This document shows positions 1,736 through 51,126 of a stretch of DNA of 64,000 bases, piece after piece. This DNA comes from Bacteroidota bacterium. Its GTDB lineage: Bacteria; Bacteroidota; Bacteroidia; Bacteroidales; JAGNHN01. The notes under the pieces were generated by a model. It did no database searches. It had not been told where the DNA came from and worked only from the letters and a program-made list of their open reading frames with translations. The stretch is from assembly GCA_022710185.1 (NCBI GenBank), contig JAKLHK010000012.1, forward strand, positions 19,245 to 83,244, in the 5' to 3' direction. The translations under genes and the position numbers were made by a program. Numbering within the stretch: position 1 is the first letter of the stretch; every line of letters begins with the position of its first letter.

Positions 1736-2644
1736 TCAGTTGGTGGTGGTCTGCATGATCTTGTCGTACTTGGCGTTGTTGGCCGGGTCGATCTCTTTCA
1801 GGGTGTTTACGGCCTTGGTCTTGTCCATAGGAGAGGCCTGGGAATAGACGTTGATCAGCTCATCCCGCTTGGCATCCATCATCAGCTGCAGCAGGAAGAG
1901 CCCGGGCTTCTCACGGCTGGCCTTGCGTAGGTACTCTATGCTTTGTGTGATTTCAGAACGGCCCATTTCCACATTTTCAGACATCTGGTCGAGGCCCATG
2001 CGGTGGTAGGAATACAGGAACTGCCGGATCGGGGAATACGAGGAGTTCATCAGGTTTTCCACCAGCCAATAACGGTTCTTGAGGCTCTCGAAGGCCTTCC
2101 ATCCCCTTTCCGATGCGCTCTGGGCTGAGTTGACAATGCCCTGGGCCTTTTCGTAATAGGGCGTTCCCCCATTGGGAGAATAGCTGTCGAAATCCAGGCC
2201 AAGCATCACATAACAATAAAAGGCCACCACAGAAGTGAGGTTGGAGGTGAAGTTGTTCTCCTGGAATTCCAGGGTCTCGTACTCCACATACCGGAAGGTG
2301 AAGTCCTTGTCGATATAGTTCAGCAGCACCGAATTATAGGAAGTTTTGTAGATGGGGCGCCTCAGCTGCACGTTGATGGTCCCCTTGAACTCATCGGTAC
2401 TGATGCGGTCCTGCACGGTAATCATCATGGTGCATTCAATGCGTTCCTCCACCTTGTAATCGTAGTTCGTCCACTTGCGCTGGTTGATGAACTCGTACAG
2501 GGCCGTTTGAAGGGTCTGGTAGATCCTGCGGTCGGTTCCTTCGATCTGTGGCGTGGATACACTAATGGTGCAGTTGAACTCCTGGGCCAGCGCGGTCCAG
2601 GTGCTGAAAATAAACAGGAGGCTTATGATGAATTTCCTTGGCAT
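1736..2644 (-). CDS. DUF4835 family protein (annotated in some Bacteroidota as T9SS-associated PorD), secreted
   Basis: 302-aa ORF with signal peptide MPRKFIISLLFIFSTWTALAQ. It holds the conserved position between recN and coaBC typical of Bacteroidota. The family assignment is from recall of sequence and synteny. Confidence 0.7.
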   Translation of the reverse strand: MPRKFIISLLFIFSTWTALAQEFNCTISVSTPQIEGTDRRIYQTLQTALYEFINQRKWTNYDYKVEERIECTMMITVQDRISTDEFKGTINVQLRRPIYKTSYNSVLLNYIDKDFTFRYVEYETLEFQENNFTSNLTSVVAFYCYVMLGLDFDSYSPNGGTPYYEKAQGIVNSAQSASERGWKAFESLKNRYWLVENLMNSSYSPIRQFLYSYHRMGLDQMSENVEMGRSEITQSIEYLRKASREKPGLFLLQLMMDAKRDELINVYSQASPMDKTKAVNTLKEIDPANNAKYDKIMQTTTN

Positions 2645-2668
2645 GGGCTGATAATGGCTTACTGCGGC

Positions 2669-3880
2669 CTATTGGGCCGGTCCCGAAAGGGCGCGGCGGA
2701 TTTCGTTCACAATGTCGTTGGCCACTTCCTCCTTCGACTTCAGGGGGTAGGCCTTTTCCGTTCCATCCCGGCTGATGATGACCACTTTGTTGGTAGGCGT
2801 AGCAAAGCCAGCCCCTTTGTCCCGAAGGGAGTTGAGCACGATGAGGTCGGCATTTTTCTCCTGCAGCTTATGGCGGGCATTCTCCCTCTCCTTGTCGGTC
2901 TCCAACGCAAACCCGACCACCACCTGATCTGTACGTCGAGCCTTTCCAATCCCGGCCAGGATGTCTTCCGTGGCCTTGAGGGTGAGCTGCATCTCGAGGT
3001 TTCCCTGCTTCTTGATCTTGCTCCGGTGCACCGTGGCAGGACTGAAATCTGCGACCGCAGCGGCCATGATGATTACGGTATGCGCTGGGAGCTGGACCAT
3101 GACCTCTTCCTGCATCTGGGCGGCAGTGACTACATCGATGCGGTGTATGCCGGGTCTATGCGTCGACAGGGCCGTAGGACCGGTGATCAGGGTAACCTGG
3201 GCACCCCGCATGGCCAGGTTCTCGGCCAGGGCAAAGCCCATTTTTCCGCTGCTATGATTGCCGAAGTAACGAACCGGATCCAGGGGTTCATGTGTGGGCC
3301 CGGCCGTCACCAGGGCATGAACACCTTCCATGTCCTTTGCGGTCAGGGCCAGCCGAATAACCTCGAGGATCATTTCCGGCTCCTCCATCCTCCCTGCGCC
3401 ACAAAGCCCCGACGCCAGTTCTCCGGTCTGGGGCTCGATGAGGTGATGGCCCATGCGGGTCAGCCGGTGAATGTTCTCCTGGGTGGTGGGGTGACGGTAC
3501 ATGTCAAGGTCCATGGCCGGAGCAAAATACACAGGGCATTTGGCGGAAAGATAGACGGTCATCAGGAAATTGTCCGCGATGCCATGGGCCATTTTGGCCA
3601 GGGTGTTGGCCGAGGCCGGGGCGATCACAAAAAGGTCGGCCCAGCGGCCCAGGTCCACATGGCTGTTCCAGAGGCCGTCCCTGGGGTCGAAGGCCTCAGT
3701 CCAAACCGGCCTTTTCGAAAGCGTGGACAAGGTCAAGGGGGTAACGAAGTCATGGGCGGAAGGTGTCATCACCACCCGCACATTGGCCCCTTCCTTCATC
3801 AGCAGGCGCACCAGCAACGGTACCTTGTAGGCTGCGATGCTGCCGGTCACCCCGATCAGGATGTTCTTGTCCCTCAACAT
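2669..3880 (-). CDS. coaBC: Bifunctional phosphopantothenoylcysteine decarboxylase / phosphopantothenate-cysteine ligase
   Basis: 403 aa with N-terminal flavoprotein motif ILIGVTGSIAAYK and a C-terminal DFP/CoaB domain (..VTAGPTHEPLDPVRYFGNHSSGKMG..). Confidence 0.93.
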   Translation of the reverse strand: MLRDKNILIGVTGSIAAYKVPLLVRLLMKEGANVRVVMTPSAHDFVTPLTLSTLSKRPVWTEAFDPRDGLWNSHVDLGRWADLFVIAPASANTLAKMAHGIADNFLMTVYLSAKCPVYFAPAMDLDMYRHPTTQENIHRLTRMGHHLIEPQTGELASGLCGAGRMEEPEMILEVIRLALTAKDMEGVHALVTAGPTHEPLDPVRYFGNHSSGKMGFALAENLAMRGAQVTLITGPTALSTHRPGIHRIDVVTAAQMQEEVMVQLPAHTVIIMAAAVADFSPATVHRSKIKKQGNLEMQLTLKATEDILAGIGKARRTDQVVVGFALETDKERENARHKLQEKNADLIVLNSLRDKGAGFATPTNKVVIISRDGTEKAYPLKSKEEVANDIVNEIRRALSGPAQ

Positions 3881-3892
3881 GCCCGCAAGGAC

Positions 3893-4231
3893 TTAGGGAT
3901 TGCTGTCCCGCATCTCCTTGATCGGATTACGGAAATAGATCTGATCCTCCAGGTATTCCTGAATGGCGAGCAGTGTGGGCTTGGGGAGCTTCTCGTAGTA
4001 TTTGGCGATCTCGATCTGTTCCTTGTTCTCGAATACCTCTTCCAGGTTGTCAGAGGTCTGGGTGAACTCGGAGATTTTCTTGTTCAGCTCCTCCTTCAGG
4101 TCCATCCCAATCTGGTTGGCGCGTTTGGAGAGGATGACAATGGTTTCGTAGACATTATCGGTCCCGTTCACGAAATCGCGCATCCTGCGGGTGACGGCCT
4201 GATTGTCGGCTTTGATCCGTTTGTATTCCAT
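3893..4231 (-). CDS. rpoZ: DNA-directed RNA polymerase subunit omega (Bacteroidota long form)
   Basis: 112 aa. NVYETIVILSKRANQI...NLEEVFENKEQIEIAKYYEKLPKPTLLAIQEYL matches the Bacteroidota omega pattern, and it has the typical position between bamD and coaBC. Confidence 0.8.
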   Translation of the reverse strand: MEYKRIKADNQAVTRRMRDFVNGTDNVYETIVILSKRANQIGMDLKEELNKKISEFTQTSDNLEEVFENKEQIEIAKYYEKLPKPTLLAIQEYLEDQIYFRNPIKEMRDSNP

Positions 4232-6473: not shown

Positions 6474-9400
6474 TCACATCAGTATGCCCGGGATGCGCCA
6501 CCTGCGGCGCAGCAGGAAGAGGGAGATAAGGAAGATGGCCATGGCGGGGCCCAGGGCGAGGTAGATCGGTTGCCAGGGGGAACGGAAGGAAACCGGGGCC
6601 GTGTCGCCGATATTCACGAAACTCGACCAGAAGTAGGGGCTTGCGGCGAGTTCGCCGGCCTGAGTGATATAATCCAGTTTGGCACGCCTGAGGGCCTCGT
6701 CCTTGGGGAGCCCTTCCTTGAGGTAGGCATAGAACGACTCCATGATGGCGGCAGTGGAACGGTCCTCTACCTTCCACAGGCTGATCACGAGGCTGGGGAC
6801 GCCGGAGTACATGAACCCCCGGGCAAGGGTCATGAGCCCCTCCCCTTTCACGTGCTGCCCATAGCCGGTATTGCAGGCGCTGAGCACGGCGAGCTCGGCG
6901 TTCAGCTTCATATTGAAAAGCTCATAAGTGTTGAGGTACCCATCTTCATCTGTGCCCTGTTCGGGGAAGAAGGCCAGGCGACTGTACATGGGCTGGTCGT
7001 TGTTCACCAGGCCGTGGGTGGCGATGTGCAGGATGCGGTAGCCCGAGGCCAGGGCCTTGAAGCGGGATTCTGTGGCTTCCTCCTGCATGAGTATCTTACC
7101 CTTCAATATCTTACCGATGGCGGCTACCTCGTAAAGGGTCTGGGGCAGGTTCATCAGCTCCCCTCCGCGCTCGGCAAAGCGGCTGGCGTTGAGGGCCAGG
7201 GGGGCGTCGGGGTTGAACACGGCAGGTGCGAATGCCAGCAGTTCTCCCCGGGCGTGGCCTTTGGGGCGTTCGAGGGCCTTGATGAGCAAGGCGGCGGAAT
7301 AGCCGTAACTCACGCTGTGGTCGCGCAGCACATAATGTAGGTCGCGGTAATTGATGCGGTCGGTGCGCGAGGCCCGGGAGAGCAGTGACTCGAAAGAAAT
7401 ATATCCCAGCTGCCCGTCCGGGATGATGATGAGCTTGCGGTCTTGTATGAGCGCTTCAAAGGGGTGCAGCAGGATGGCATAGAGGGCATAGGCACTGTTC
7501 ACATAGTCGCGGAACACTTCCCGGGGGGCGCTGACGAGTTGGCCGAGGTCCTGGCGGTTGGGCAGATGGGCGATCAGCGTTTCCAGGGGGGTGGTCAGCA
7601 CCTGGTTCTCGATGCTGACGCCCATTGGGGTCACGCAGAATCCGACCAGGAAGGAGTCGGAGATGTAGTATTCGATCAGGGCCTCATCGGGCTGCAGGCG
7701 GTACTGGATCTCCCGCATGCTGTATATGCGGTTCTCGTACTTGTACTGGTAATATTCGGGGAAGTAGCGTTCGAAGCTGAGGGTAAGCTGGTCCTGTTGC
7801 GTTTGCAGTTGCAGGAGGCGCATCTCCCAGTTCGACATTTTCAGGGAATCGGGCTGGCTGAGCTGGCGTTCTTCGTAGATCAGCTTCTGGAAGGCGGCAA
7901 TGTCGCGGCGCAGGCGGGCTTCTTTGGCCAGGAGGGAGTCGGGGATATCGGCAAACTGACGGGCATCACTTTCCCGGATCTGTTGGTACAGCAGGCTGGC
8001 CTTGGAGCGTTCGGCGATATTGAAGGCCCTTTCGGCATAGGCCATGCTGCCGGTGGCCTTGTATAGTTCAAGGGAGTAGGCCACGGCCTTCTCGTAAATC
8101 TTCTGATGGGAGGCCGTGATCTCCATTTTGCTGGAGTTACTCAGCTGCAGGGTCTTGGTCTTGTCGATCAGGTCGATGAGGTAGGCATAATGTTTCTGTA
8201 CCTCCTGCAGGTGCTGCAGGCTGCGGTCGTACTTCAGGCGTTCTTCAAGGGCCCTGGATTTCTTCTGTACGATGCGGAAGAGTTCGATGGTTTGGAAGGA
8301 GTTGAGGCTGTTACTGCTAGATAACAGTGCGCTTGGCTGTTCTTTGTTTAATAGGATGCCTATGGCGTCATTATAAAATCTCAATGCTTTTTTTATATTC
8401 GAATAGGCATAAACATCAGCAAGATACTCATAACACCAAGCTGTATTATGACTTCTTGGGCCATAATTTCGTAAAGAATAGTCCAACGCGTGAGTAACAT
8501 AAAATTCCGCATCCTTTCTCTTGCCAATCGAATTCAGAAATTCACTGTACAGAAGATATGTATTGTTAAAATTATCCCGATTAGTTACCCGATTATTAAT
8601 GCTTAACTTTATAATTTCTTTGAAATATTTGTCAGCAGATGCATTATTTCCAGCGGCTGCATGAGCCATAGCAAGATTTTTTGTAATATCATTTTGAGAG
8701 TTAATGTTATTATCAGCAATAGTAGAATTTGCTAGATTGAAACTACTGATTGCTTCGTTGTATTGGTTGAATGAATAATATATATTTCCTTCTTCAAGCA
8801 AAACTTTTACCATCTCATTGCTAAGAATCGACTTATTTAGCAAAACAATCCTTTTGGCATTCTTTGTGTATTGTAGCGCTTTATCTTTGTCCCTAATATT
8901 CTTGTATATTCTTGACTTTGCCAAGTTTAAGGAAACTAGTGTTCTTGGACTGTTAATGTTTGGGTACAATGATTCATAGTGATTTAGCACCTTCAATCCT
9001 TCATCATATCGTCCTAGAATAATATACAGGCTTGACAAATTTGTTGCAGACAAAATAATTTTATCATCATCTTCTATACCAATCTTTGTCTTTATTTCAA
9101 GTGCTCTTAAATAATTTTGCAATGCTAGATCATAGTTTCCAAGCTTACGCTCAATTACCCCTATGTTATTGTGAATTGAGGCTAAAAGATAAGACTCCTT
9201 TGCACCAAAATAAATATTATGCAGAGATAAACTCTTAAATACAGACTCTTTAGCCTGATCAACAGAACCAAGAAGATATTCATTAGCAAAATTCAATGAA
9301 TAAAATAGGATAAGCAGCGAATCATAATTAGCATCAACCCTATTTTCAATGATTTTGCAGTACATGCTGCTTATTTCCTTTGACTCACTATATTTTCCCG

Positions 9401-9872
9401 TATTATATAAAACCTTGGCCGTAAAATAATTATACCATAACTTAGCATAAAAATCATTAGGTGAGTCATCTAATACCCTATTAGCGACATGCGAAATTGA
9501 CTCAAACTCAGTGACACCATCAATTTGGACCAGTGAAACCAAAGCCTTAAACAATTCCACGTTATACGGGTATCCCTGCTGTTTATATGCTGTTGCAAGA
9601 GCATAGTATTGAACAACAAGGCTATCTTGAAGAGCCCTCTCTTCGAAATAGGCAACCCTAGCATATATTGACTTAGAGGTTTGCTTAACTTTTTGTATAT
9701 TTACCCCATTGGAAATAAGCAGTCTGCCAACTGCGTCATAACTTGATGACCTCTCAAGTTGTGCGTAAGTAGCTTCTGCACATATTGATCCTACGCCAAA
9801 CAGGAACACTAGGATAACCTGGATACTGAGGCTTGGGATAATATAGCTTGTATGTCTGCCTGTCCTCTTCAA
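6474..9872 (-). CDS. TPR-repeat / CHAT-domain (caspase-like) protease with N-terminal signal or anchor and C-terminal transmembrane anchor
   Basis: 1132-aa uninterrupted ORF with a TTG start. The N-terminus is MKRTGRHTSYIIPSLSIQVILVFLFGVGSICAEA. About 500 aa of Asn/Lys/Tyr-rich TPR-like repeats follow. The C-terminal CHAT region has the His..Cys dyad contexts ILHIATHG and AVLSACNTG. The last 35 aa are a TM helix plus RRRWR. The 5' 1.5 kb is strikingly AT-rich. Confidence 0.85.
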   Translation of the reverse strand: MKRTGRHTSYIIPSLSIQVILVFLFGVGSICAEATYAQLERSSSYDAVGRLLISNGVNIQKVKQTSKSIYARVAYFEERALQDSLVVQYYALATAYKQQGYPYNVELFKALVSLVQIDGVTEFESISHVANRVLDDSPNDFYAKLWYNYFTAKVLYNTGKYSESKEISSMYCKIIENRVDANYDSLLILFYSLNFANEYLLGSVDQAKESVFKSLSLHNIYFGAKESYLLASIHNNIGVIERKLGNYDLALQNYLRALEIKTKIGIEDDDKIILSATNLSSLYIILGRYDEGLKVLNHYESLYPNINSPRTLVSLNLAKSRIYKNIRDKDKALQYTKNAKRIVLLNKSILSNEMVKVLLEEGNIYYSFNQYNEAISSFNLANSTIADNNINSQNDITKNLAMAHAAAGNNASADKYFKEIIKLSINNRVTNRDNFNNTYLLYSEFLNSIGKRKDAEFYVTHALDYSLRNYGPRSHNTAWCYEYLADVYAYSNIKKALRFYNDAIGILLNKEQPSALLSSSNSLNSFQTIELFRIVQKKSRALEERLKYDRSLQHLQEVQKHYAYLIDLIDKTKTLQLSNSSKMEITASHQKIYEKAVAYSLELYKATGSMAYAERAFNIAERSKASLLYQQIRESDARQFADIPDSLLAKEARLRRDIAAFQKLIYEERQLSQPDSLKMSNWEMRLLQLQTQQDQLTLSFERYFPEYYQYKYENRIYSMREIQYRLQPDEALIEYYISDSFLVGFCVTPMGVSIENQVLTTPLETLIAHLPNRQDLGQLVSAPREVFRDYVNSAYALYAILLHPFEALIQDRKLIIIPDGQLGYISFESLLSRASRTDRINYRDLHYVLRDHSVSYGYSAALLIKALERPKGHARGELLAFAPAVFNPDAPLALNASRFAERGGELMNLPQTLYEVAAIGKILKGKILMQEEATESRFKALASGYRILHIATHGLVNNDQPMYSRLAFFPEQGTDEDGYLNTYELFNMKLNAELAVLSACNTGYGQHVKGEGLMTLARGFMYSGVPSLVISLWKVEDRSTAAIMESFYAYLKEGLPKDEALRRAKLDYITQAGELAASPYFWSSFVNIGDTAPVSFRSPWQPIYLALGPAMAIFLISLFLLRRRWRIPGILM

Positions 9873-9928
9873 AACTTATGGAATGGGTAAATATACAAAA
9901 CTTGTGTCATTTTCTAAAATATACGATC

Positions 9929-10195
9929 ATGAGCATCAAAACGGAAGAAAATAATTCAACAATTTTTCAAACAACTCAGAACATGGAACTTATGAACACA
10001 ATTGAAATGCTCTCAGTTCGAGGAGGGCGGCTTTCTTACGGTCCGAGAAAACTCTCAGAGGCTGATATTGAAGTGCCAGACCTTACCTATTCTGGACCAA
10101 AGACGACTTCTGAAAGCGATTTGGAGCAACCAGATCTTACTCAATCCCTCTCGAGGCGTCGTAAATCCTGCCTTCCTACCATATTCTGCTGGTAG
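9929..10195 (+). CDS. Double-glycine-leader peptide precursor 1 (88 aa, two GP..PDLT modules plus a basic/Cys tail)
   Basis: This is the in-frame sub-ORF of track ORF 9848..10195. Leader: MSIKTEENNSTIFQTTQNMELMNTIEMLSVRGG. Core: RLSYGPRKLSEADIEVPDLT YSGPKTTSESDLEQPDLT QSLSRRRKSCLPTIFCW. The leader is paralogous to peptide 2 (NSxIF, EM(L/I)S(V/I)(R/K)GG). The start at 9929 avoids overlap with the CHAT gene start. Confidence 0.6.
   Translation: MSIKTEENNSTIFQTTQNMELMNTIEMLSVRGGRLSYGPRKLSEADIEVPDLTYSGPKTTSESDLEQPDLTQSLSRRRKSCLPTIFCW
10034..10141 (+). repeat. Tandem 54-nt (18-codon) coding repeat inside peptide 1
   Basis: SYGPRKLSEADIEVPDLT (10034-10087) against YSGPKTTSESDLEQPDLT (10088-10141). 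The amino-acid motif is conserved with different synonymous codons. Confidence 0.65.
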
Positions 10196-10216
10196 AAAGA
10201 GGCCTTTCTTTTCTTA
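10194..10216 (+). terminator. Weak AT-rich hairpin plus T-tract after peptide 1
   Basis: AGAAAG(10194-10199)/CTTTCT(10204-10209) with loop AGGC, then TTTCTT. A second 6-bp hairpin GTTCCC/GGGAAC lies at 10229-10244. Confidence 0.3.
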
Positions 10217-10283
10217 CTTAACGACATAGTTCCCTAACGGGAACAAAATCAGTTGATTCAGAAATCTTAAAACAACAATAGTC

Positions 10284-10418
10284 ATGGAAAATTCCAACAT
10301 CTTTAGTAATGTTACTGTTTTGTCATTCGAAGAAATGATCTCAATTAAAGGTGGAAATGCTGGTCCTGGCGAAAAAGCTGGAGACAGTACATCAATTGAC
10401 CAGCCTGATCTGACCTAG
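10284..10418 (+). CDS. Double-glycine-leader peptide precursor 2 (44 aa, one GP..PDLT module ending at the stop codon)
   Basis: Not in the ORF track (under 60 aa). Manual translation gives MENSNIFSNVTVLSFEEMISIKGG | NAGPGEKAGDSTSIDQPDLT*. LSxEEMxxIKGG is a textbook bacteriocin-type GG leader. Confidence 0.6.
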   Translation: MENSNIFSNVTVLSFEEMISIKGGNAGPGEKAGDSTSIDQPDLT

Positions 10419-10447
10419 TCGGATAGTCTTCGTCCGCACTTTCTTTT

Positions 10448-10455
10448 TAGCTTTG
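10448..10455 (+). promoter_or_regulatory. Bacteroidota-type -7 promoter motif TAgcTTTG upstream of the alpha-oxoamine synthase gene
   Basis: Exact match to the TAnnTTTG consensus, 30 nt before the first possible start codon. Confidence 0.4.
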
Positions 10456-10485
10456 CACCCAATTCACTGAGGTGTTAAGCTAAAC

Positions 10486-11751
10486 TTGTGTATCGTGGAC
10501 ATTTTCAACAAGGTCGTTAACAATATGGGTCCGCTCGGACGGCACTCCGTCATGGCCCATGGGTATTTCACCTTCCCCAAGCTCGAGGGGGAGATCAGCA
10601 ACCGCATGATGTTCCGGGGTAAGGAACGCCTGGTGTGGAGCCTCAACAACTACGCCGGGTTGGGCAACCACCCGGAGGTGCGTAAGGCCGATGCCGATGC
10701 AGCAGCCGAATGGGGCCTCGCCTACCCCATGGGCGCCCGCATGATGTCTGGTCAGACAAAATACCACGAACAACTGGAGCGTGAACTGGCCGCCTTCGAA
10801 AGCAAAGAGGACGCCTTCCTGCTCAACTACGGGTACCAGGGCATGGTATCCATCATCGATGCCATGGTGGATCGCAAGGACGTGATCGTTTACGACTCTG
10901 AAGCCCATGCCTGCATCATCGACGGGGTGCGGCTGCACATGGGCAAGCGCTACGTCTATCCACACAATAATATACAGAACTTCGAGAAAGAACTGCAACG
11001 CGCCCAGCGGCTTACCGAAGAGACGGGCGGGGGCATCCTGGTAATCACCGAAGGGGTTTACGGCATGTCGGGCGACCTGGGCAAGCTGCGGGAGATCGTG
11101 GCCCTGAAAAAGAAATACGCCTTCCGCCTTTTGGTCGACGACGCCCACGGCTTCGGCATTATGGGAGCCACCGGGGCCGGTACCGGGGAACACCTGGGGG
11201 TGCAGGATGAGATCGACCTCTACTTCGGCACGTTCGCCAAAGCCATGGCTGGCATCGGTGCCTTCGTGGCCGGCCCTGCCGACGTAATGCAGTACCTCAG
11301 GTACAATATGCGCTCCCAGACCTTCGCCAAGTCGCTCCCCATGCCCATGGTCATCGGCTCCCTGAAACGACTGGAAATGCTGCGCACCATGCCAGAGCTG
11401 CGGCAACAGTGCTGGACCATCGTAGACGCCCTGCAAAATGGCCTCAAGGCCGCCGGTTTCGACCTGGGCAATACCGAATCCCCGGTAACCCCGGTGATGC
11501 TCAAGGGTGGACTGGGTGAAGCCACCCACCTGACCTTCGATCTCCGGGAGAAGTTCAACATCTTCTGCTCCATCGTCACCTATCCGGTGGTACCCAAGGA
11601 CGTCATCCTCATCCGTCTCATCCCCACCGCCATGCACACACTGGAGGACGTGGATTATACCATCAAGGCCTTTGTGGATGTCAAGGGTAAACTGGACTCC
11701 GGGGAATATGCCCGGCGCGAGATGATGGATGCTGCTGCCTTTATGCAGTAG
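10486..11751 (+). CDS. PLP-dependent alpha-oxoamine synthase family acyltransferase (BioF/KBL/serine-palmitoyltransferase-like)
   Basis: 421 aa (TTG start, or ATG at 10525). Family motifs ..NNYAGLGNHPEV.., ..DDAHGFG.., ..GTFAKAMAGIGAF.. (PLP Lys context). No bio or tdh genes are adjacent, so substrate specificity is unresolved. Confidence 0.85.
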   Translation: MCIVDIFNKVVNNMGPLGRHSVMAHGYFTFPKLEGEISNRMMFRGKERLVWSLNNYAGLGNHPEVRKADADAAAEWGLAYPMGARMMSGQTKYHEQLERELAAFESKEDAFLLNYGYQGMVSIIDAMVDRKDVIVYDSEAHACIIDGVRLHMGKRYVYPHNNIQNFEKELQRAQRLTEETGGGILVITEGVYGMSGDLGKLREIVALKKKYAFRLLVDDAHGFGIMGATGAGTGEHLGVQDEIDLYFGTFAKAMAGIGAFVAGPADVMQYLRYNMRSQTFAKSLPMPMVIGSLKRLEMLRTMPELRQQCWTIVDALQNGLKAAGFDLGNTESPVTPVMLKGGLGEATHLTFDLREKFNIFCSIVTYPVVPKDVILIRLIPTAMHTLEDVDYTIKAFVDVKGKLDSGEYARREMMDAAAFMQ

Positions 11752-11854: not shown

Positions 11855-13360
11855 TCAGGGGGAAAGGCATTTAACGATCAACTTCTGCCCCCCGGCCGTA
11901 AGGATATGGGCAAGGTATAACCCGCCCGGCAGCGCAGCCGGCAAAGAGAAGCTGTTCCCCATGCCCGAGCGCAGCACCAGGAGGCCCGCGCTGTTGTATA
12001 TCTCGATCCGTGCCTGACCCTGAGATGAAGCATGCTCCTCGAGACCGATCTGCCGGGCCAGCGGGTCGAACCATGCCCGGACCACGGGCCCTGAAGGCCC
12101 GGTAACTCCATTGGACGTTGGCATCAGCTTGACATCCAATACAGTGGCCTGATCGTTGATAAGCCCAAGCCCGGCAATGGTGCGGCTGTGATAACCGGTA
12201 GCGCTGAATGTCAGGGTGTAGGTCCCGGCATGAAGATAGCGGTAGTAGTCCCCCAGCGGCAGCCTCGACCAGACATGGGAGCTGTCCGCATCATGGCCCT
12301 GGATGAAAACCCGGGCGTGGAGCGGCTGCCCGCTCAGGGAATCGCTCACGATACCCCTGAGCCCATAACGGGCCTGGTCCATATACCCGAGCAGCGAACG
12401 GAAGTTGGCATTCCAGAAAGTCGGAAGCTGAGTGGCCGCAGGGAATTTGGTGTTCGAGATCTCCAGGGTGAACTCCCGGCACTGATGAAAATAGTTCATG
12501 TAGTCCTGCCTCCCCCCACTGATGCTGTACCAGTCGTAGCCATTGGTGACCCCTGTCCCGAAGTCGTTGAAATATCCGGCAGGGCCATAGGCCTGGGCTG
12601 AATCGGCATACCTATGGCAGACATATTCCCACCAGAGATAGTCTGCCGGCAACTGTGACCAGGTGTCCCAGGGATAGTTGCATACTTCGGCCCCCCCGTG
12701 GATGTTGGCGCTCATGTTGAACTTCTTTGTAGTGGCCAGGGCCATGAAAGCCTGGGTCTCAGGCTGCCATGCATTGCCGTCAGGGTGGGGTCCATCCTGG
12801 GGATCTGGGAAATTGCGGTTGATGTCTACACTGTTGGCGTTGTACCTCCAGGCCCCATTCAGGGTATTGTTGCCATTCCGGAAGGTCCCATCAGGATTCG
12901 CCAGGGGATTGATCCATATCTCCAGGCCGTCCACGAGGGCAGTAGCCATGGGATCTATCCCGTATTTCCCAAGCAGGTGTTCGGCCAGGCGCAGCAGAAG
13001 CACGTAGCCCACAAGCTCATCGCCATGCATGCTGCTGGTGTAGAGGAAACGGGGTTCGGCTTCCAGGCTGTCCACATGGTCGCTGATGACCAGGGCGAGC
13101 AGTCGCCGCCCGCTGCTCAGGGTATCCAGGGCCTCCAGCCGGCAAAGCCCGGGATGCAGTGCGGCGAACTGGGCCATCAGGGTTTCATAGGATGGGTAAT
13201 TGGGATAGAAATCCCAGATAGTGTCAGGAAGGCTTGCAAGGCTATCTCCCCCACTACGGGCCTTTAACGGAGGGGAAGCGATGAGGAGGAGCAACATCAA
13301 CAGGGGAACAAGCGGAACATTCCTGCACATTATAATATATTGTCTATGGCAAAGGGTCAT
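11855..13360 (-). CDS. M14 family zinc carboxypeptidase with T9SS C-terminal sorting domain
   Basis: 501 aa with a signal peptide and M14 motifs SSMHGDELVGY and NIHGGAEV. The C-terminus ARIEIYNSAGLLV..LPGGLYLAHILTAGGQKLIVKCL fits the Por/T9SS CTD pattern. Confidence 0.85.
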   Translation of the reverse strand: MTLCHRQYIIMCRNVPLVPLLMLLLLIASPPLKARSGGDSLASLPDTIWDFYPNYPSYETLMAQFAALHPGLCRLEALDTLSSGRRLLALVISDHVDSLEAEPRFLYTSSMHGDELVGYVLLLRLAEHLLGKYGIDPMATALVDGLEIWINPLANPDGTFRNGNNTLNGAWRYNANSVDINRNFPDPQDGPHPDGNAWQPETQAFMALATTKKFNMSANIHGGAEVCNYPWDTWSQLPADYLWWEYVCHRYADSAQAYGPAGYFNDFGTGVTNGYDWYSISGGRQDYMNYFHQCREFTLEISNTKFPAATQLPTFWNANFRSLLGYMDQARYGLRGIVSDSLSGQPLHARVFIQGHDADSSHVWSRLPLGDYYRYLHAGTYTLTFSATGYHSRTIAGLGLINDQATVLDVKLMPTSNGVTGPSGPVVRAWFDPLARQIGLEEHASSQGQARIEIYNSAGLLVLRSGMGNSFSLPAALPGGLYLAHILTAGGQKLIVKCLSP

Positions 13361-15288
13361 GGGGTATGACTGGCATTGGCATCACCGGCACAGATCACCC
13401 GCAGCAAGACCTGGCTCTGGGGTTGCAGGTAAAGCAGCTGTTCCTCGCTGACCCAGTCGGGGCGGGCGAACTGGGCATCCAGGCCCACGAACCTGCGCTG
13501 GATCAGGAGGGCATCGGTACTATTCACGGAGCCGCTGAGGTTTACATCAGCGGCCAGGCGCGGTAAACCCGGAGCAAGGGTATCCAGCTGGGCGAAGTGG
13601 GTCATGGCCAGCAGGGCGTCGGCGGTATTCACCCCTCCCCAGGTCGGCAAAGGGCCGGCAACGAGGCGGTAGGTTCCCGGAGCGACCAGGCTGAGGCTGA
13701 AATAACCCAGGCTATCGGTCTGAAGGGAATCCAGCAGGACACCCAGGGTGTCCAGGAGGTATACTTTCCCTTCTCCGGCCGGACTGTACAAGGAATTATC
13801 GTAGACGACCTGACCGTTCACCGTGAATGCGTCAGGCCTCAAGGCAACATCGAGGCAATGGGCCTGTCCCTGGACCACAGAAATGCCGGTAACCGTCTTG
13901 CTTTGATAGCCTGCCGAAGAAAAGGTCAGGGCATAGGTTCCTGTGGGCAGGTAGCGGTAATAGTCGCCATGCAAGGCCCCGGAGAACACATGCGAACTGT
14001 CGGCATCGTGCCCGGTTATGAAGATCCTGACTTTCAGCGGCTGGCCTGTCAGGCTGTCGGTGACACAGCCATGCAGACCGTTCAGGCTCTGCTCCAGGTA
14101 GTTGAGAAGGCTGCGGTAATTGTAGTTCCAGAAATTGGGTAGCTGGGAAGCGGAGGGTAGCTTGGTGGCGGAGATCTCCAGGGTGAACTCCCGGCCCCGG
14201 TGGAAATAGGTCATGTAGTCCTGCCTTCCCCCATCAATGGAGTACCAGGTGGCCCCGTGGGTGACCCCGGTACCGAAATCGTCCATATATCCGCTGGGAC
14301 TATAGAACTGGGCGGTGTCGGCATATTGGTTGCAGACATACTGCCACCACAGCTCATCGGGATGGAGTTTCTGGAAGGCATACCAGGTATCCCAGGGATA
14401 ATTGCAAACCTCGGCGCCCCCATGGATGTTGCACGACATGCTAAATCGCCGGGCTGAGGCAAAGTTCATGAAGATCTGGGTCTCGGGTTGCCAGGCATTA
14501 CCGTCTGGATGGGGCCCATCCTCTGGATCAGGATAGTTGCGGTTAAGGTCCACCCAGTTGGCATTGTAGCGGGTAGCCCCGAGTACGGATTGGTTTCCCG
14601 ATCGGTAGGTACCGTCAGGATTGGCCAGGGGGTTGATCCAGATATCTATGCTATCGACCATCCGCTGGATGCGGGCATCGGTGGCGTAGTTGCTGAGAAG
14701 GTAATCGGCCAGGCGCAGCAGGAGCACATAGCCCACTATCTCATCACCATGCATGGAAGAGGTATAAAGGAAAGCCGGCTCGGCCTCTGCACTGTCCGGA
14801 TGATCCGTAATTCTGAGGGCAAGAATTTTACGACCTGAGGCCAGGGTACCCAGGTTGTGCATGCGGCAGAGGTTAGGGTATTGCAGGGCAAAGTCAGCCA
14901 TCATGCTTTCGTAGGTGGGGTATGTTGGATAGGTGTTCCACGACCAGGTGGTTTTCAGCATGCTGTCGTTGAACATGTCCACGGGATAGGATGGGCGCGA
15001 AGGCAATGGCAGCAGGGCATGGCTGATCTTGCGCTGCAGCAGTCCGAGGTACATCCGGGGGCTGAGGTAGGCATAGAGGGAATCCCCTTCGGCGCGGTCG
15101 GGTGTAAGCCAGCGTTGGAGAGAATCCATAGGCACGGCATTTCGGTGTATCCGGACATAGGCTCCGGCGCTATCCGGAGGGTAGACCTGTGCCTGGGCTG
15201 ATGCTATGATCGTAATGGCGAAGAGCAGGATACCAAGCCTCACCCCTGCAGCCGTCTGTCTGATCATCATGCCAGTTGCGCCATACAA
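13357..15288 (-). CDS. M14 family zinc carboxypeptidase paralog with C-terminal CarboxypepD_reg-like and dockerin-like repeats
   Basis: 643 aa with the same M14 motifs (SSMHGDEIVGY, NIHGGAEV). The C-terminus has paired dockerin-like segments GGVNTADALLAMTHF and DVNLSGSVNSTDALLIQRRFVG. It overlaps the downstream paralog by 4 nt (ATGA). The likely true start is at MMIRQ (about 15270). Confidence 0.85.
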   Translation of the reverse strand: MYGATGMMIRQTAAGVRLGILLFAITIIASAQAQVYPPDSAGAYVRIHRNAVPMDSLQRWLTPDRAEGDSLYAYLSPRMYLGLLQRKISHALLPLPSRPSYPVDMFNDSMLKTTWSWNTYPTYPTYESMMADFALQYPNLCRMHNLGTLASGRKILALRITDHPDSAEAEPAFLYTSSMHGDEIVGYVLLLRLADYLLSNYATDARIQRMVDSIDIWINPLANPDGTYRSGNQSVLGATRYNANWVDLNRNYPDPEDGPHPDGNAWQPETQIFMNFASARRFSMSCNIHGGAEVCNYPWDTWYAFQKLHPDELWWQYVCNQYADTAQFYSPSGYMDDFGTGVTHGATWYSIDGGRQDYMTYFHRGREFTLEISATKLPSASQLPNFWNYNYRSLLNYLEQSLNGLHGCVTDSLTGQPLKVRIFITGHDADSSHVFSGALHGDYYRYLPTGTYALTFSSAGYQSKTVTGISVVQGQAHCLDVALRPDAFTVNGQVVYDNSLYSPAGEGKVYLLDTLGVLLDSLQTDSLGYFSLSLVAPGTYRLVAGPLPTWGGVNTADALLAMTHFAQLDTLAPGLPRLAADVNLSGSVNSTDALLIQRRFVGLDAQFARPDWVSEEQLLYLQPQSQVLLRVICAGDANASHTP

Positions 15289-42545: not shown

Positions 42546-43757
42546 TCAAAGGCCGGTCAGCTGTCCGGCCTGGGCAGCCCAGGTCCAGCTGAAAACGGAG
42601 GTGTTAGCCTGAGGATTTCCCCCTGCAGTAACGCCTGCCGGTACGGCACCGTTCACATGGTTGGCCAGACTGTCGGCAGGAACATCCAGTGTGATATTGG
42701 TGAAGGTCACGCCTGCGGCGGTAACCCGGTTGATCTTCTGGCCGTCAGCAATGCCGGTGAAGTGAAGGCCCTGCAGGTCAACGATAGAGTTGGCATCCAC
42801 GTTGATCAGGTCCTCCGACTGGCGGTCCTCATTGGAGGCCACGATGGTACCGGTCTTGATGGTATGGCCACCCTGGTAGGAACCTTCGGGGCCGTCCAGC
42901 TCGAAGCAATGCCCGGCCGGGGTCACGACAACGAAGTTCTCAAGGGTGCCACTCCACGACTGGTCGGTGTCGATGGCATCGTCACCGACATTCCAGACCA
43001 CCACGTTTTTCACATTGACGGCACCACCAAACCATTCGATGCCATCATCCTGATTGGAGACCACTTCCACGTTCTCGATCACGGTACCCGAGCCTACACC
43101 ACCCAGGGTGAGGCCGTTGATTTCGTTGCCGGAACCTATGTTGGAACCACCGTGACGGATGGAAATGTACTTAATTATGCCAGAATCGTCGGCATCGTCA
43201 TTTCCACCGTAAAGGCCATTGGCGTCTGAGGTGGGGATACCTTCGATCTGCACTTCGGTAAGGTCACCACTGGTATTGGAGGCGCTGATGCGGGCTTTGC
43301 CCAGGATGATAAGGCCGCCCCACAGCCCGTTGATATCGGGATCAAGGTTAGGTGAGCCGAAATTGCCGGCAGCGATGTCTTCGGGGGAGATCTCATCCGC
43401 CACCGAAGTGAAAATGATGGGGGCATCGGCCGTTCCTTCTGCAATCAGGCGTCCGCCACGGGCGATCAGCAGAGCTGTAGCATTGGCACCCGTACCCGCT
43501 TCACCTTTAATAATAGTACCTGCCTCAATCGTCAGGGTTGCCCCGCTAACAACAGCGATCCTGCCCGCCAGCTGGTATACCTTATCGCTGGTCCAGGTAG
43601 TGTTGGAAGTGATATTCTGGTTCACAATCACGTTACCGGTGACGATTGGATCATTATCTACAGGATCGTCATCGTTACAGGATACCAAGGCAAAGCTAAG
43701 GCTAAGGCCGATCAAGGGAAGAATTAGGATGTTCTTGCTTTTCATTTCAACGCGCAT
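42546..43757 (-). CDS. Beta-helix-like surface lipoprotein, co-oriented upstream of the TonB receptor
   Basis: 403 aa with lipobox LSFALVSCNDDD (start possibly MKSKN at 43745). Gly/Asn/Thr-rich repetitive turns (..GATLTIEAGTIIKGEAGTGANATAL..). Confidence 0.65.
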   Translation of the reverse strand: MRVEMKSKNILILPLIGLSLSFALVSCNDDDPVDNDPIVTGNVIVNQNITSNTTWTSDKVYQLAGRIAVVSGATLTIEAGTIIKGEAGTGANATALLIARGGRLIAEGTADAPIIFTSVADEISPEDIAAGNFGSPNLDPDINGLWGGLIILGKARISASNTSGDLTEVQIEGIPTSDANGLYGGNDDADDSGIIKYISIRHGGSNIGSGNEINGLTLGGVGSGTVIENVEVVSNQDDGIEWFGGAVNVKNVVVWNVGDDAIDTDQSWSGTLENFVVVTPAGHCFELDGPEGSYQGGHTIKTGTIVASNEDRQSEDLINVDANSIVDLQGLHFTGIADGQKINRVTAAGVTFTNITLDVPADSLANHVNGAVPAGVTAGGNPQANTSVFSWTWAAQAGQLTGL

Positions 43758-43869
43758 GTTAATTTTGTTTGATTACGCACTGCAAAAAAACACCTGCAAT
43801 GTAAATTGGACATTAACACTGCGTTAAGTTTCCGTTAAGCTGAGGGGAATGTTAACGACAGATGAACTT

Positions 43870-44781
43870 TCATCCGCACAAAAGGGAGGCCTTCAGAAAA
43901 CGTATGCGCCCCCGGAAATCCCTGGCCAGGCCAACATTCAGATAACCTGCAGCAGTGAATATGCTGGCCGTTTCATCTCCCAGGGCCTCGTTGAGTTCAG
44001 CCAGAACCATTCCTCCGGGAACCAGCAGCTGTTTGCCCCATAGTGCCAGAGAGCGGTAGAAGGCCAGGGGGTCCTCATCCGGAGCGAAGAGCGCGCTATG
44101 GGGTTCCCATTCCAGCACATTAGGCTGCATCAACTGGTGTTCTTCCCACCTGACATAGGGAGGATTGGAGAGGATAAGATGAAGGTTTCCCTGAACCCCA
44201 GGAGGAGGCGGACGCAATAGGTCGGCATGTACAAACTTGACATCCAAACCGTTGCGCAGGGCATTCTCCCCTGCGAGCGTCAGGGCTTCCTCACTGAGGT
44301 CGGTACCCGTGACCTTTGCTCCCGGAAACCACCGTTTCATAGCCAGGGCCAGGCAGCCGGAACCTGTGGCAGCATCGAGGATACGAGGGGCTGGCAGCCA
44401 GGTAGTCCTTTCCCTGAGGATATCCCTGGCCATGCATGCCATCTCCTCGGTTTCCGGGCGGGGAATGAGTACGGCAGGACATACCTTCAGCTGAAGACCG
44501 GCGAAATCCACCTCGCCAAGGATATATTGCCAGGGCTCATGCCCCAGCGCCCGTTGTACCATCTCCCCTACCTTGGCCACGACATCCGGGCCGAAGCTGG
44601 GCCTTCGTGTGATGAGACCCAACCAGTCCTCCCCGCTGGCATGGCCTATAAAGAGGCGTGCAAGGGTGTCAGCCGCTTCAGTAGAATGCAGGGGCAGAAG
44701 GTCATTAGTCACCCGGGTGCGCAGGTCCTGAAATTCAACGGAACCTTGATACTCGGGCAAACGGGGCCGGAAGTCCTCCAT
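43870..44781 (-). CDS. prmC: Peptide chain release factor N(5)-glutamine methyltransferase
   Basis: SAM motif ILDAATGSGCLA and catalytic NPPY (ILSNPPYV). The start is set at MEDFRP (44781), because the upstream 72 codons of the ORF are antisense to ribD. Confidence 0.88.
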   Translation of the reverse strand: MEDFRPRLPEYQGSVEFQDLRTRVTNDLLPLHSTEAADTLARLFIGHASGEDWLGLITRRPSFGPDVVAKVGEMVQRALGHEPWQYILGEVDFAGLQLKVCPAVLIPRPETEEMACMARDILRERTTWLPAPRILDAATGSGCLALAMKRWFPGAKVTGTDLSEEALTLAGENALRNGLDVKFVHADLLRPPPPGVQGNLHLILSNPPYVRWEEHQLMQPNVLEWEPHSALFAPDEDPLAFYRSLALWGKQLLVPGGMVLAELNEALGDETASIFTAAGYLNVGLARDFRGRIRFLKASLLCG

Positions 44782-50234: not shown

Positions 50235-50629
50235 GGCAGGAAGAGCTTAAGGAACCATTGCGGAGGGCGTACCGGACGGTTGTCGGCCACCCTGGTGAAG
50301 ACCAGGTCAGTGCTTCCCCGGTTCAGGAGGAACCCTGCCTCATTCTCCACCTCGTACTCGAAGTGCATGCGGACTCCCGGCATCTCCCTGATAATGGTAC
50401 GTATGGTAAGCATCTCATCGTAGCGGGCTGGAGCCAGGTATTCCACCTGCAGATTACGTACCGGCATCTGTATCCCGGTATCCTCAAGGTGTTTATACGA
50501 AGTTCCCAGCTCTCGCAAGGCTTCCGTGCGGCCAACCTCGTAATAGGCAGGGTAATTGCCGTAATAAAGGAAGCCCATCTTGTCTGTCTCCCCATAAATC
50601 ACCCTGCGTTTTGTCGTGCTGATCAGCAT
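50219..50629 (-). CDS. Acyl-CoA thioesterase (YbgC/4HBT hotdog fold)
   Basis: 136 aa: VIYGETDKMGFLYYGNYPAYYEVGRTEALRELG.. Confidence 0.85.
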   Translation of the reverse strand: MLISTTKRRVIYGETDKMGFLYYGNYPAYYEVGRTEALRELGTSYKHLEDTGIQMPVRNLQVEYLAPARYDEMLTIRTIIREMPGVRMHFEYEVENEAGFLLNRGSTDLVFTRVADNRPVRPPQWFLKLFLPYFGE

Positions 50630-51126
50630 ATCCTGGAAATAAGTGGTACGAAGATGGGGAAGATCAGAGAATTTTCAGGAATATCTGTTCCAGGCATTGA
50701 AATGGTGAATAAAATTGTATAATTTTCGTCCACAGCTTTGCCGCATTTTCTCTGTTGTCAAGCGCTTAATAATGAAGACCATGTCGGGTAGGTCGTGCCC
50801 CCCATGGAAGGAAGGGGCGCTTGGATCCGGAGCATGAAGGGAGGAAGGCCGATACGAGCCCACTGGCAGCCCGGTAAATCGTCCCCAAAAAGGCAGTAAG
50901 GCGGAATGCCTTGACAGACAAGCAGAACAAGGGCACAGTGGCTTTCAGGTGTAAGACAATTTTTCTTGAAAGTCAAGCATGGAAGACCTTTTTTTTCCAC
51001 TTTTTTGCCTGGATATTTGTCAATGAGTTCCTCTGCCTCACCTGGCCTGTGGATGGCAGGCTGGCCCCGCAAGATCAGTTGATCTGCATTGTAGCTGTTT
51101 AATTAACACGGATAACGCTCTATCGG
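50630..51126. other. 497-bp non-coding region upstream of dnaA (candidate oriC/regulatory region; only degenerate DnaA boxes)
   Basis: This is the largest intergenic gap in the window. T-tracts at 50989-51007. There are 2-mismatch DnaA-box-like 9-mers at 50726-50734 (TCGTCCACA), 50993-51001 (TTTTCCACT) and 51048-51056 (TGTGGATGG). The GC-rich core at 50790-50935 has local stems. Confidence 0.3.

Follow-up and report, generated by a model that had tools for sequence, protein, structure and literature searches.

At the agr and comCD loci of Firmicutes, the precursor of a peptide is encoded beside a histidine kinase receptor with a hypervariable sensor half and a conserved catalytic half, and the peptide itself has a conserved leader and a variable mature end; several alleles occur per species, and no compositional break is known. 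A locus of comparable layout is present in a 64,000-nucleotide (nt) stretch of DNA from a Bacteroidota bacterium (GenBank assembly GCA_022710185.1, contig JAKLHK010000012.1, positions 19,245 to 83,244 of the forward strand; hereafter the window, numbered from its first letter). It consists of the gene of a TPR-CHAT protease and of two divergently oriented genes of small peptides, pep1 and pep2, and the half of the protease gene that encodes the TPR array is abruptly AT-rich. Two other described systems are close to it in composition or in protein architecture. In Salmonella, the wzx, wzy and glycosyltransferase genes of the O-antigen clusters have a guanine plus cytosine (GC) content of 28-37% in a genome of 51-52%, and the cause is acknowledged to be unexplained (PMC3715488). 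DdvA of Myxococcus xanthus, the only characterised periplasmic TPR-CHAT protein, has an N-terminal anchor, a cytoplasmic zinc anti-sigma domain and an extracytoplasmic function (ECF) sigma factor as a partner (PMC11506125). Here we examine the compositional break of the TPR-CHAT gene and argue that the AT-rich state is, on balance, probably an old one.

The first-pass annotation of the window had reported a GC break inside one intact open reading frame (ORF), and its 60-nt GC counts were reproduced exactly (0.550, 0.483, 0.283, 0.383, 0.333, 0.517 and 0.617). The interval 8335-10440 has 35.9% GC, compared with 57.4% on its left and 56.1% on its right side. Over the 64 kb, 300-nt windows have a mean GC of 0.555 with a standard deviation (sd) of 0.051, and 8149-10588 is the sole stretch where they fall below 0.41 (down to 0.29). 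Windows of this size drop below 45% GC at two further places only, 43505-43978 and 50471-51261 (minima 0.41 and 0.44); these mild dips match the intergenic spacers 43758-43869 and 50630-51126 and are far weaker than the zone studied here.

The 1132-codon ORF of the protease gene (6474..9872, minus strand, TTG start) runs uninterrupted over the break, and the break is a genuine one at synonymous sites: a two-segment likelihood model gave a GC content at third codon positions (GC3) of 0.31 at codons 4-519 and of 0.80 after them, with a gain of 144.9 log-likelihood units (lnL). Along the ORF, GC3 varies between 0.15 and 0.42 up to codon ~500 and between 0.68 and 0.90 from codon ~520; the mean of 41 long ORFs of the window, a tally that includes a few wrong-frame shadows, is 0.69 (sd 0.05). 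The 3' change-point was placed at codon 520, with a 2-lnL interval of codons 515-522 (nt 8307-8328). The AT-rich zone of the gene, codons 1-520 (8313..9872, minus strand; GC 0.30-0.41), encodes the signal peptide and the whole TPR array. On the other side of the interval, composition is back to 0.60 GC at nt 10526 (interval 10520-10532), and the BLAST matches of every relative begin at 10437-10441, in agreement with the right-hand coordinate of 10440 proposed earlier. The interval between these edges is a variable stretch flanked by two conserved anchors, namely the scaffold/CHAT half of the protease gene and, from 10440, the promoter and gene of an aminotransferase. As had been claimed, it holds the peptide genes and the start region of a co-directional gene array. 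Its description as a single low-GC cassette applies to the TPR core (0.30-0.33 GC) but not fully to the peptide genes, which are only moderately AT-rich (GC 0.43 and GC3 0.40 in pep1, 0.39 and 0.33 in pep2).

The amino-acid makeup of the N-terminal half is also skewed (FYMINK residues 0.41, GARP residues 0.18). The break is nevertheless not due to amino-acid composition alone, because GC3 flips while the GC content of first and second codon positions drops only modestly. Amino-acid composition was rejected as the cause, as the shift is greatest at third positions and persists at conserved residues. Strand-specific deamination was rejected as well: at four-fold degenerate sites A is about as frequent as T, and there is no strand-specific signature. 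A search for known RNA families in 8000-10800 gave only a chance-level match.

The encoded protein is a separase/craspase-type CHAT protease by its profile match, its catalytic dyad and its TPR-plus-CHAT fold. Pfam assigns TPR_12 to residues 230-303 and CHAT (PF12770) to residues 793-1090 (E=1.5e-63, full profile coverage). The His-Cys dyad, H953 in the motif HIATHG (7014-7016, minus strand) and C1000 in LSACNTG (6873-6875, minus strand), does not vary among the 65 sequences of a family alignment or among the orthologues. An AlphaFold model derived from this alignment (mean predicted local distance difference test score, pLDDT, 83.6; predicted template modelling score, pTM, 0.79) contains, in order, an N-terminal hydrophobic helix, ~12 TPR-like hairpins (residues 60-508), a linker (509-524), a long-helix scaffold (525-711), the alpha/beta CHAT domain (730-1090) and a C-terminal transmembrane (TM) helix (1100-1126) followed by the tail RRRWRIPGILM. 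The top Foldseek matches in the Protein Data Bank (PDB) were separase, Craspase Csx29 and M. xanthus DdvA (E 1e-14 to 1e-12), with modest global TM-scores of 0.2-0.57; at the sequence level there was no match to CHAT proteins of the PDB, only generic TPR, and PADLOC gave no match that would make the locus part of a defence system. The linker between the TPR array and the scaffold (8301..8348, minus strand) is predicted to be disordered, with pLDDT below 50 at residues 517-520; it contains the GC3 change-point, and P520 is the first near-invariant column across the family, so the annotated position of the break on a domain boundary stands. The scaffold, the CHAT domain and the TM helix are encoded by the part with native composition (6474..8300, minus strand). 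We infer that the protease is periplasmic and anchored in the inner membrane by its C-terminal helix.

The evidence on the age of the AT-rich zone comes from related loci (loci and proteins are designated below by L and P numbers). Their syntenic order is M14 peptidases, aminotransferase, pep2, pep1 and then, divergently, TPR-CHAT, photolyase, bamD, rpoZ and coaBC. They include a locus from a Lentimicrobiaceae metagenome-assembled genome (MAG; L005, the same as L006; host GC 0.49) and its sister lineage (L016 and L017; 77% nt identity over 13 kb), a locus from JGI 3300010350 (L012, protein P0139; host GC ~0.57), partial loci from a Bacteroidales MAG and its sister (L003 and L024), peptide-side fragments (L023, L018 and L022) and a C-terminal fragment with 78% amino-acid identity (L004). 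All orthologues that reach the TPR region carry an AT-rich zone there, and the zone was found in at least four Bacteroidales/Lentimicrobiaceae lineages besides that of the window, with host GC of 0.49-0.57 and zone GC3 of 0.24-0.31. In window-equivalent residues, the zone extends over 1-472 in L012 (GC3 0.29 inside and 0.75 outside), over 128-486 in L005 (0.31 and 0.62) and likewise in L016, and from 285 to the contig end in L003 (0.24 and 0.56), and it ends no more than ~45 codons from the TPR/scaffold linker wherever a contig reaches that edge. In the lineage of the window and in L012, the whole variable interval between the anchors is AT-rich. At alignment columns with an identical amino acid in the window, L012 and L005, GC3 is 0.30-0.33 in the zone and 0.79, 0.74 and 0.61, respectively, in the C-terminal half. 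Even in L005 and L016, the closest full-length pair, with C-terminal halves 83% identical, silent sites are saturated (proportion of silent differences, pS, 0.7-0.9), which makes dN/dS in the zone incomputable; the zone and its edges are still shared by the pair. As silent sites are saturated between lineages, a GC3 of ~0.3 must be close to the local stationary state.

More distant members of the family were also inspected. A paralogue with 30% identity on an activated-sludge contig (L010, 9383-12724; host GC 0.44) has a GC3 dip to 0.16-0.40, against ~0.6, at residues 226-540. As no GG-type peptide gene was found upstream of it, this dip is independent of peptides. Two paralogues in hosts with GC of 0.51 (L013) and 0.53 (L015) have no dip, and a generic property of TPR-coding sequence or of the protein family was rejected on these grounds; L007, L008, L009 and L011 come from low-GC hosts and are uninformative in this respect.

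An explanation by a single recent horizontal acquisition, in which a 2.1-kb segment came from a low-GC donor and has not yet ameliorated, would account for a strong and sharply bounded contrast and for the shift in amino-acid composition. However, silent sites are saturated in at least four further lineages that carry the zone, all copies of the cassette are orthologous and in synteny, and neither a donor nor mobility genes, tRNA or repeats were found, so that such an acquisition is very improbable. Recent import is disfavoured because related lineages with saturated silent sites carry the same zone, and on balance we favour an AT-rich state that is old, vertically inherited and locally maintained in situ.

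The break is reproducible in public assemblies. Across the break, the window is matched at 99.99-100% identity by six public contigs, which come from five samples, and five of them also reach the right edge. The contigs that span the break and reach the aminotransferase side were built by different assembly pipelines: a 15.3-kb contig with a NODE-style (SPAdes-style) name from ENA ERZ795054 (L001), two contigs with k141-style names from ENA ERZ27257455 and ERZ27257480, a Logan contig from SRR5007146 and a contig from JGI 3300025715. A sixth sample is known from protein P0297 alone (JGI, 7.5-kb contig), which is identical to residues 105-1132. The sole difference among the public copies of the locus is one single-nucleotide polymorphism (R836H); they are probably, in effect, one clone and hence exclude a chimera but say little on within-species diversity. 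No alternative allele of the locus was present in any assembly of this organism, the copies being near-clonal. A chimera joining the DNA of two organisms, or a sequencing artefact, was accordingly rejected: its probability is practically negligible, as the compositional contrast is all that speaks for it, whereas the contigs are near-identical through one or both junctions, the frame is intact and the orthologues have the same full-length architecture. A side observation concerns gene calling. Public gene models clip the TPR-CHAT gene in its AT-rich half (P0295, P0019/P0298 and P0297; starts at residues 497, 170 and 105); in the case of the NCBI model HRY98095.1, the start at residue 497 falls directly on the break, and the compositional switch evidently misleads gene finders. 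The full length of ~1132 residues is backed by the ORF and by orthologues of 1112 and 1129 residues.

To explain the break, the first-pass annotation had proposed the homologous replacement of a specificity module, as at pherotype loci, a proposal that predicts different histories for the two halves of the protein. When the halves were compared by pairwise identity, in the zone (residues 60-508) and the C-terminal half (525-1095), respectively, the values were 64% and 83% for L005-L016, 35% and 68% for window-L012, 30% and 68% for window-L005, and 31% and 64% for L012-L005; the zone of the window is 45% identical to that of L003, and its C-terminal half is 79% identical to that of L004. The pairs rank the same in both halves, and the divergence of the zone is a steady 2-2.6 times that of the C-terminal half, albeit in few taxa; this ratio fits vertical co-divergence with a faster-evolving sensor domain. 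Overall, amino-acid identity to the orthologues is 27-49% in the zone, 64-83% in the C-terminal half and 86-89% in the aminotransferase. The halves are thus congruent, the orthologues share the zone, no donor was found and pep1 is near host GC elsewhere, and replacement by a foreign module was not borne out. The analogy with pherotype loci remains apt as a description, in that a variable receptor half and peptide genes lie beside a conserved catalytic half, but the swap that it implied is not supported. As at polymorphic loci, a variable module is enclosed by conserved anchors and the peptides are encoded next to the receptor; an incongruent phylogeny of the variable part, in contrast, was not found among the few taxa. 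Nor does the interval look like an island: as already annotated, there is no integrase or other mobility gene among the neighbours, no tRNA and no flanking direct repeat, and the module is syntenic in every related locus recovered.

Searches for a source of the N-terminal half were equally negative. An exhaustive phmmer search against 1.84 billion representative proteins gave only P0001 (L003, 45% identity) and P0139 (L012, 36%) as full-length matches, the others being generic TPR_12. This search was relied on since word-indexed homologue searches missed the true relatives P0019 and P0139 (the L012 protein), which makes their negatives weak. No viral relative was found, and a phage origin was rejected; no silent donor copies or internal repeats were found in the 64-kb window.

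A less drastic form of exchange has to be weighed against these data, in which the TPR array and the peptides form a polymorphic specificity module and an AT-rich pool of alleles spreads among related strains and species by homologous recombination in the flanks, the edges of the zone being the junctions, as at O-antigen, flagellin, hsdS, agr or com loci. It would explain why a variable interval lies between two conserved anchors with a sharp left edge at codons 515-522 and a right edge at 10437-10441, why the 5' extent of the AT-rich tract differs by lineage, why the peptide genes are GC-depleted in the lineage of the window and not in others, and why both the pep1 tail and the TPR zone are hypervariable. 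An over-similar 5' patch shared by L005 and L016 beside a hyper-divergent one also hints at local exchange, and the variable genes of the O-antigen clusters of Salmonella, uniformly low in GC, are puzzling in the same way (PMC3715488). On the other hand, the zone and the C-terminal half are congruent with proportional divergence, no donor-like sequence exists among the 1.84e9 representatives, and there is neither an alternative allele nor a second protein cluster with a near-identical C-terminal half, in a sampling that is probably clonal and by a word-indexed search that is not exhaustive. Flank nt identity between lineages, ~70-80%, is low for homologous recombination, exchange would leave the AT-richness of the pool itself unexplained, and the data do not require it. 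We consider allelic exchange unlikely.

Regarding the cause of an old and locally maintained zone, a possible driver, which we put forward tentatively and slightly prefer to the alternative given below, is AT-biased mutation that goes unopposed because GC enrichment acts poorly on a hypervariable segment. Mutation would be AT-biased, and the silent sites of the zone would lie near mutational equilibrium at a GC3 of ~0.3, the rest of the genome being kept GC-rich at silent sites by recombination-associated GC-biased conversion, weak selection or both. Recombination-associated GC enrichment would rarely resolve inside the hypervariable segment and would resume at the linker, where strong conservation starts. 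GC3 is known to increase with recombination in most bacterial species groups tested (PMC4450053).

Several points weigh against a zone that is old and maintained in this manner. The GC of the zone, ~0.32, is below the 0.52 of the window's non-coding DNA taken together (0.33-0.61 in short spacers), so simple relaxation would need non-coding DNA that is itself GC-enriched. Segments of L005 and L016 that are equally divergent keep normal GC, namely the 5' part of the photolyase gene (56-69% nt identity) and a part of the M14 gene (59-71%); fast evolution alone was rejected as the cause for this reason. The 3' edge is very sharp (8 codons) and the 5' edge varies by lineage (residues 1, 4, 128 and 285), a pattern that recombination junctions would give as well. 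Congruence was judged from 4-6 taxa, with L003, available for the N-terminal part only, and L004, available for the C-terminal part only, taken as comparably close relatives, and the copies of this organism's locus are practically clonal. Finally, the link between the peptides and the TPR array is a proposal.

In-situ maintenance could alternatively result from selection that favours AT-rich DNA or rare codons in the part encoding the TPR domain, a variant that is counted within our confidence in an old and maintained zone and that is by itself quite doubtful. In one version, slow translation would let a fast-folding TPR solenoid be exported or folded in step with its synthesis; in another, the AT-rich tract would bind a nucleoid protein or otherwise throttle the expression of the protease and peptides. 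Selection would fit an edge that coincides with the linker between two protein domains in the window and lies about two hairpins or less from it in L012 and L005, an effect that holds at strictly conserved residues, persistence past silent saturation in several lineages and at the same position in one distant paralogue, and an AT content of the zone above that of non-coding DNA. The contrast cannot stem from ordinary selection for translational efficiency, because both halves share the expression level of one mRNA. Against the idea of codon-level selection stand the two paralogues without a dip in GC-rich hosts, the first 128-285 codons of native GC3 in L005 and L003, by which no early-export ramp is needed, and the extension of AT-richness over intergenic DNA and peptide genes in the window. 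Moreover, to our knowledge there is no precedent for a rare-codon domain of 500 codons.

The two peptides give the locus its resemblance to a signalling system. The gene of pep1 (9929..10195, plus strand, 88 residues) is divergent from the protease gene, and that of pep2 (10284..10418, plus strand, 44 residues) is present in all syntenic loci. The sequence of pep1 reads MSIKTEENNSTIFQTTQNMELMNTIEMLSVRGG, a GG-leader-like N-terminus ending in EMLSVRGG, followed by RLSYGPRKLSEADIEVPDLT YSGPKTTSESDLEQPDLT QSLSRRRKSCLPTIFCW; in pep2, an N-terminus ending in EEMISIKGG precedes NAGPGEKAGDSTSIDQPDLT, with QPDLT at the C-terminal end. By internal duplication, pep1 has two copies of an acidic unit, GP-x4-E-[AS]-D-[ILV]-E-x-PDLT, and pep2 has one, at which the peptide stops. 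The tail of pep1 past the second unit is hypervariable, and it is basic/hydrophobic in every lineage. Judging by their sequence, the acidic PDLT units resemble a pro-region or a protease recognition site. Orthologues of pep1 were found in L003, L005, L012, L016, L022, L023 and L024, and only 7 pep1 clusters exist among 5.8 billion proteins. In other lineages the GC of pep1 is 0.46-0.59, at or near that of the host, and pep2 is lowish everywhere (0.39-0.48). No curated family matched either peptide (Pfam at E<=0.01, NCBIfam at E<=1); the GG leader of TIGR01847/TIGR04149 type is a resemblance seen by eye that the profiles do not confirm, although the motif is kept in all orthologues. No peptidase-containing ABC exporter of the C39 type (PCAT) was found among called genes within ~8-10 kb in L001 or L016.

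We infer that an extracytoplasmic peptide/protease system has its variable sensor module, a signal peptide and an array of ~12 TPR hairpins, encoded in the AT-rich interval, next to a shared divergent control region and the two peptide genes; both the periplasmic topology and an interaction of the peptides with the TPR array are presumed. In this system, the export of pep1 and pep2, at the GG motif or after it, would depend on machinery with genes elsewhere, and the periplasmic TPR array would bind the acidic PDLT units. The CHAT protease might then cleave the peptides, which would free the variable cationic tail of pep1, or might be regulated by them, and pep2, with one unit and no tail, could act as a competitor. 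By analogy with pherotype systems, it is plausible that the variable TPR surface and the variable pep1 tail form a specificity pair. The full combination remains somewhat doubtful: a self-maintaining, domain-delimited AT-rich equilibrium (GC3 ~0.3 in genomes at 0.6-0.8) that outlasts silent saturation and marks the receptor half of an undescribed system, in which a tail-anchored periplasmic TPR-CHAT protein recognises and/or cleaves its own exported peptides at PDLT units, with AT-richness arising through escape from GC-biased gene conversion or through selected slow translation.

A similar arrangement was noticed at a distant locus. The L015 paralogue P0064, which has 36% identity over the C-terminal half and no GC dip in a host of GC 0.53, is accompanied by a divergent GG-leader-like peptide at L015 600-758 (minus strand), MKTFFDENQVLNLVELMQVRGG followed by DGKNTGDPGEVSDDIILPPPPPPPPSGGTQ, and by a Sigma70_r2 (ECF-like) gene at L015 3731-4318. 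Hence peptides may be paired with TPR-CHAT proteins outside the orthologue group too, and some of these proteins may signal via a sigma factor, as DdvA does. A motif search found no GG-peptide genes upstream of the paralogues L007-L011.

The region between the divergent genes has features of its own. The perfect 16-nt inverted repeat TTTTGTATATTTACCC / GGGTAAATATACAAAA, with arms at 9691-9706 and 9885-9900, 178 nt apart, is the only perfect inverted repeat of at least 14 nt in the 64 kb with arms no more than 1 kb apart; any repeat of at least 14 nt arose in 6 of 500 shuffles. The segment enclosed by the arms (9691..9900) includes the TTG start and the first 55 codons, those of the signal peptide, of the protease gene, and the repeat closes a predicted RNA fold (z = -2.6). 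It is not clearly conserved in orthologues, and one orientation was found in all assemblies. The segment is a candidate for an invertible switch (inverton) or for a long-range mRNA stem that masks the start; intragenic inversions have been described in Bacteroides (PMC10028968). In the corresponding part of the relatives, L005 9836-10100, which covers the first 90 protease codons and the pep1 region, is 83-89% identical to L016 in nt (silent divergence, dS, 0.23-0.41), where the locus average is 77% and dS is saturated, and a hyper-divergent patch with 40% amino-acid identity follows directly at codons 91-150. The similarity of the first patch is due either to strong constraint on a divergent control region or to local exchange in the recent past.

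The right-hand anchor is a conserved block at the promoter and 5' region of the aminotransferase gene (10440..10526, plus strand), where the BLAST matches of L003, L016, L018, L022, L023 and L024 start. In it, TAGCTTTG at 10448-10455 matches TAnnTTTG, the consensus of the -7 promoter element in Bacteroidetes, and precedes by ~40 nt the probable start of the aminotransferase, a GTG at 10495 in an ORF that begins at 10486; no perfect -7 box of this kind precedes pep1 or the protease gene. The aminotransferase (10486..11751, plus strand) is a Kbl/BioF/serine-palmitoyltransferase-like acyltransferase dependent on pyridoxal phosphate. It is followed by tandem overlapping genes of M14 carboxypeptidases with CarboxypepD_reg (11855-13360 and 13357-15288; ~68% DNA identity to each other), a pair that is conserved in related loci. 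In L022, a response regulator (2456-3928) takes the place of the M14 pair after the aminotransferase, and synteny on this side is hence not universal.

An abrupt tract of low GC is routinely taken as a sign of recent horizontal transfer. Here, at least five lineages with randomised silent sites have such a tract at one and the same domain of one gene; consequently, the logic of import followed by amelioration fails, and a local and persistent cause is needed. The two halves of the TPR-CHAT gene share promoter, mRNA and expression level, and the gene thereby offers a clean internal control by which recombination-linked GC enrichment can be told from mutation bias and from codon-level selection. 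If the equilibrium is indeed a maintained one, the determinants of bacterial GC content would have a natural control inside a single gene. A periplasmic protease of separase/craspase type paired with small secreted peptides, as suggested by the locus, would be an uncharacterised combination in Bacteroidales.

Among proteins of known function, Craspase Csx29 and separase share the TPR-plus-CHAT architecture and are the best structural matches (E ~1e-14, TM-score up to 0.57 relative to the target). In contrast to these cytoplasmic enzymes, which are activated by Cas7-11 and RNA or regulated by securin, the protein described here bears a signal peptide as well as a TM helix at its C-terminal end; its gene is in no CRISPR context, the neighbours within ~10 kb being metabolic or housekeeping genes. 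DdvA, matched by Foldseek at E=5e-13, is likewise an extracytoplasmic membrane-anchored TPR-CHAT protein with a His-Cys dyad and has been proposed to sense a periplasmic protein signal. The present protein differs from it by a signal peptide, by an anchor at the C-terminus that is followed by a tail of 11 residues and by its pairing with two small peptides; no anti-sigma domain was detected with Pfam or NCBIfam, and no sigma factor gene is adjacent in the window or in the orthologous loci. Unlike in agr and comCD, the partner of the peptides would be a periplasmic TPR-CHAT protease, and the acidic units of the peptides are conserved.

At the level of composition and variability, the locus resembles flagellin, where a single gene likewise has a conserved, housekeeping-like part and a part of extreme diversity flanked by conserved sequence, in flagellin a hypervariable centre between conserved termini (PMC7018530). 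The variable region of flagellin is documented to recombine and is a surface-exposed antigen; here the variable part is N-terminal and differs in GC3, 0.3 versus 0.8. Shared with the O-antigen clusters are the conserved flanks around a hypervariable segment related to recognition, a low GC that extends to all alleles or lineages, and a grading of GC toward the flanks. The locus departs from them in that the break falls inside one ORF at a domain linker and that the variable part looks vertically inherited, not swapped. AT-rich hypervariable recognition segments between conserved flanks are thus already known; what is unusual about the TPR-CHAT gene is that such a segment lies within one gene, is delimited by a domain and is demonstrably old.

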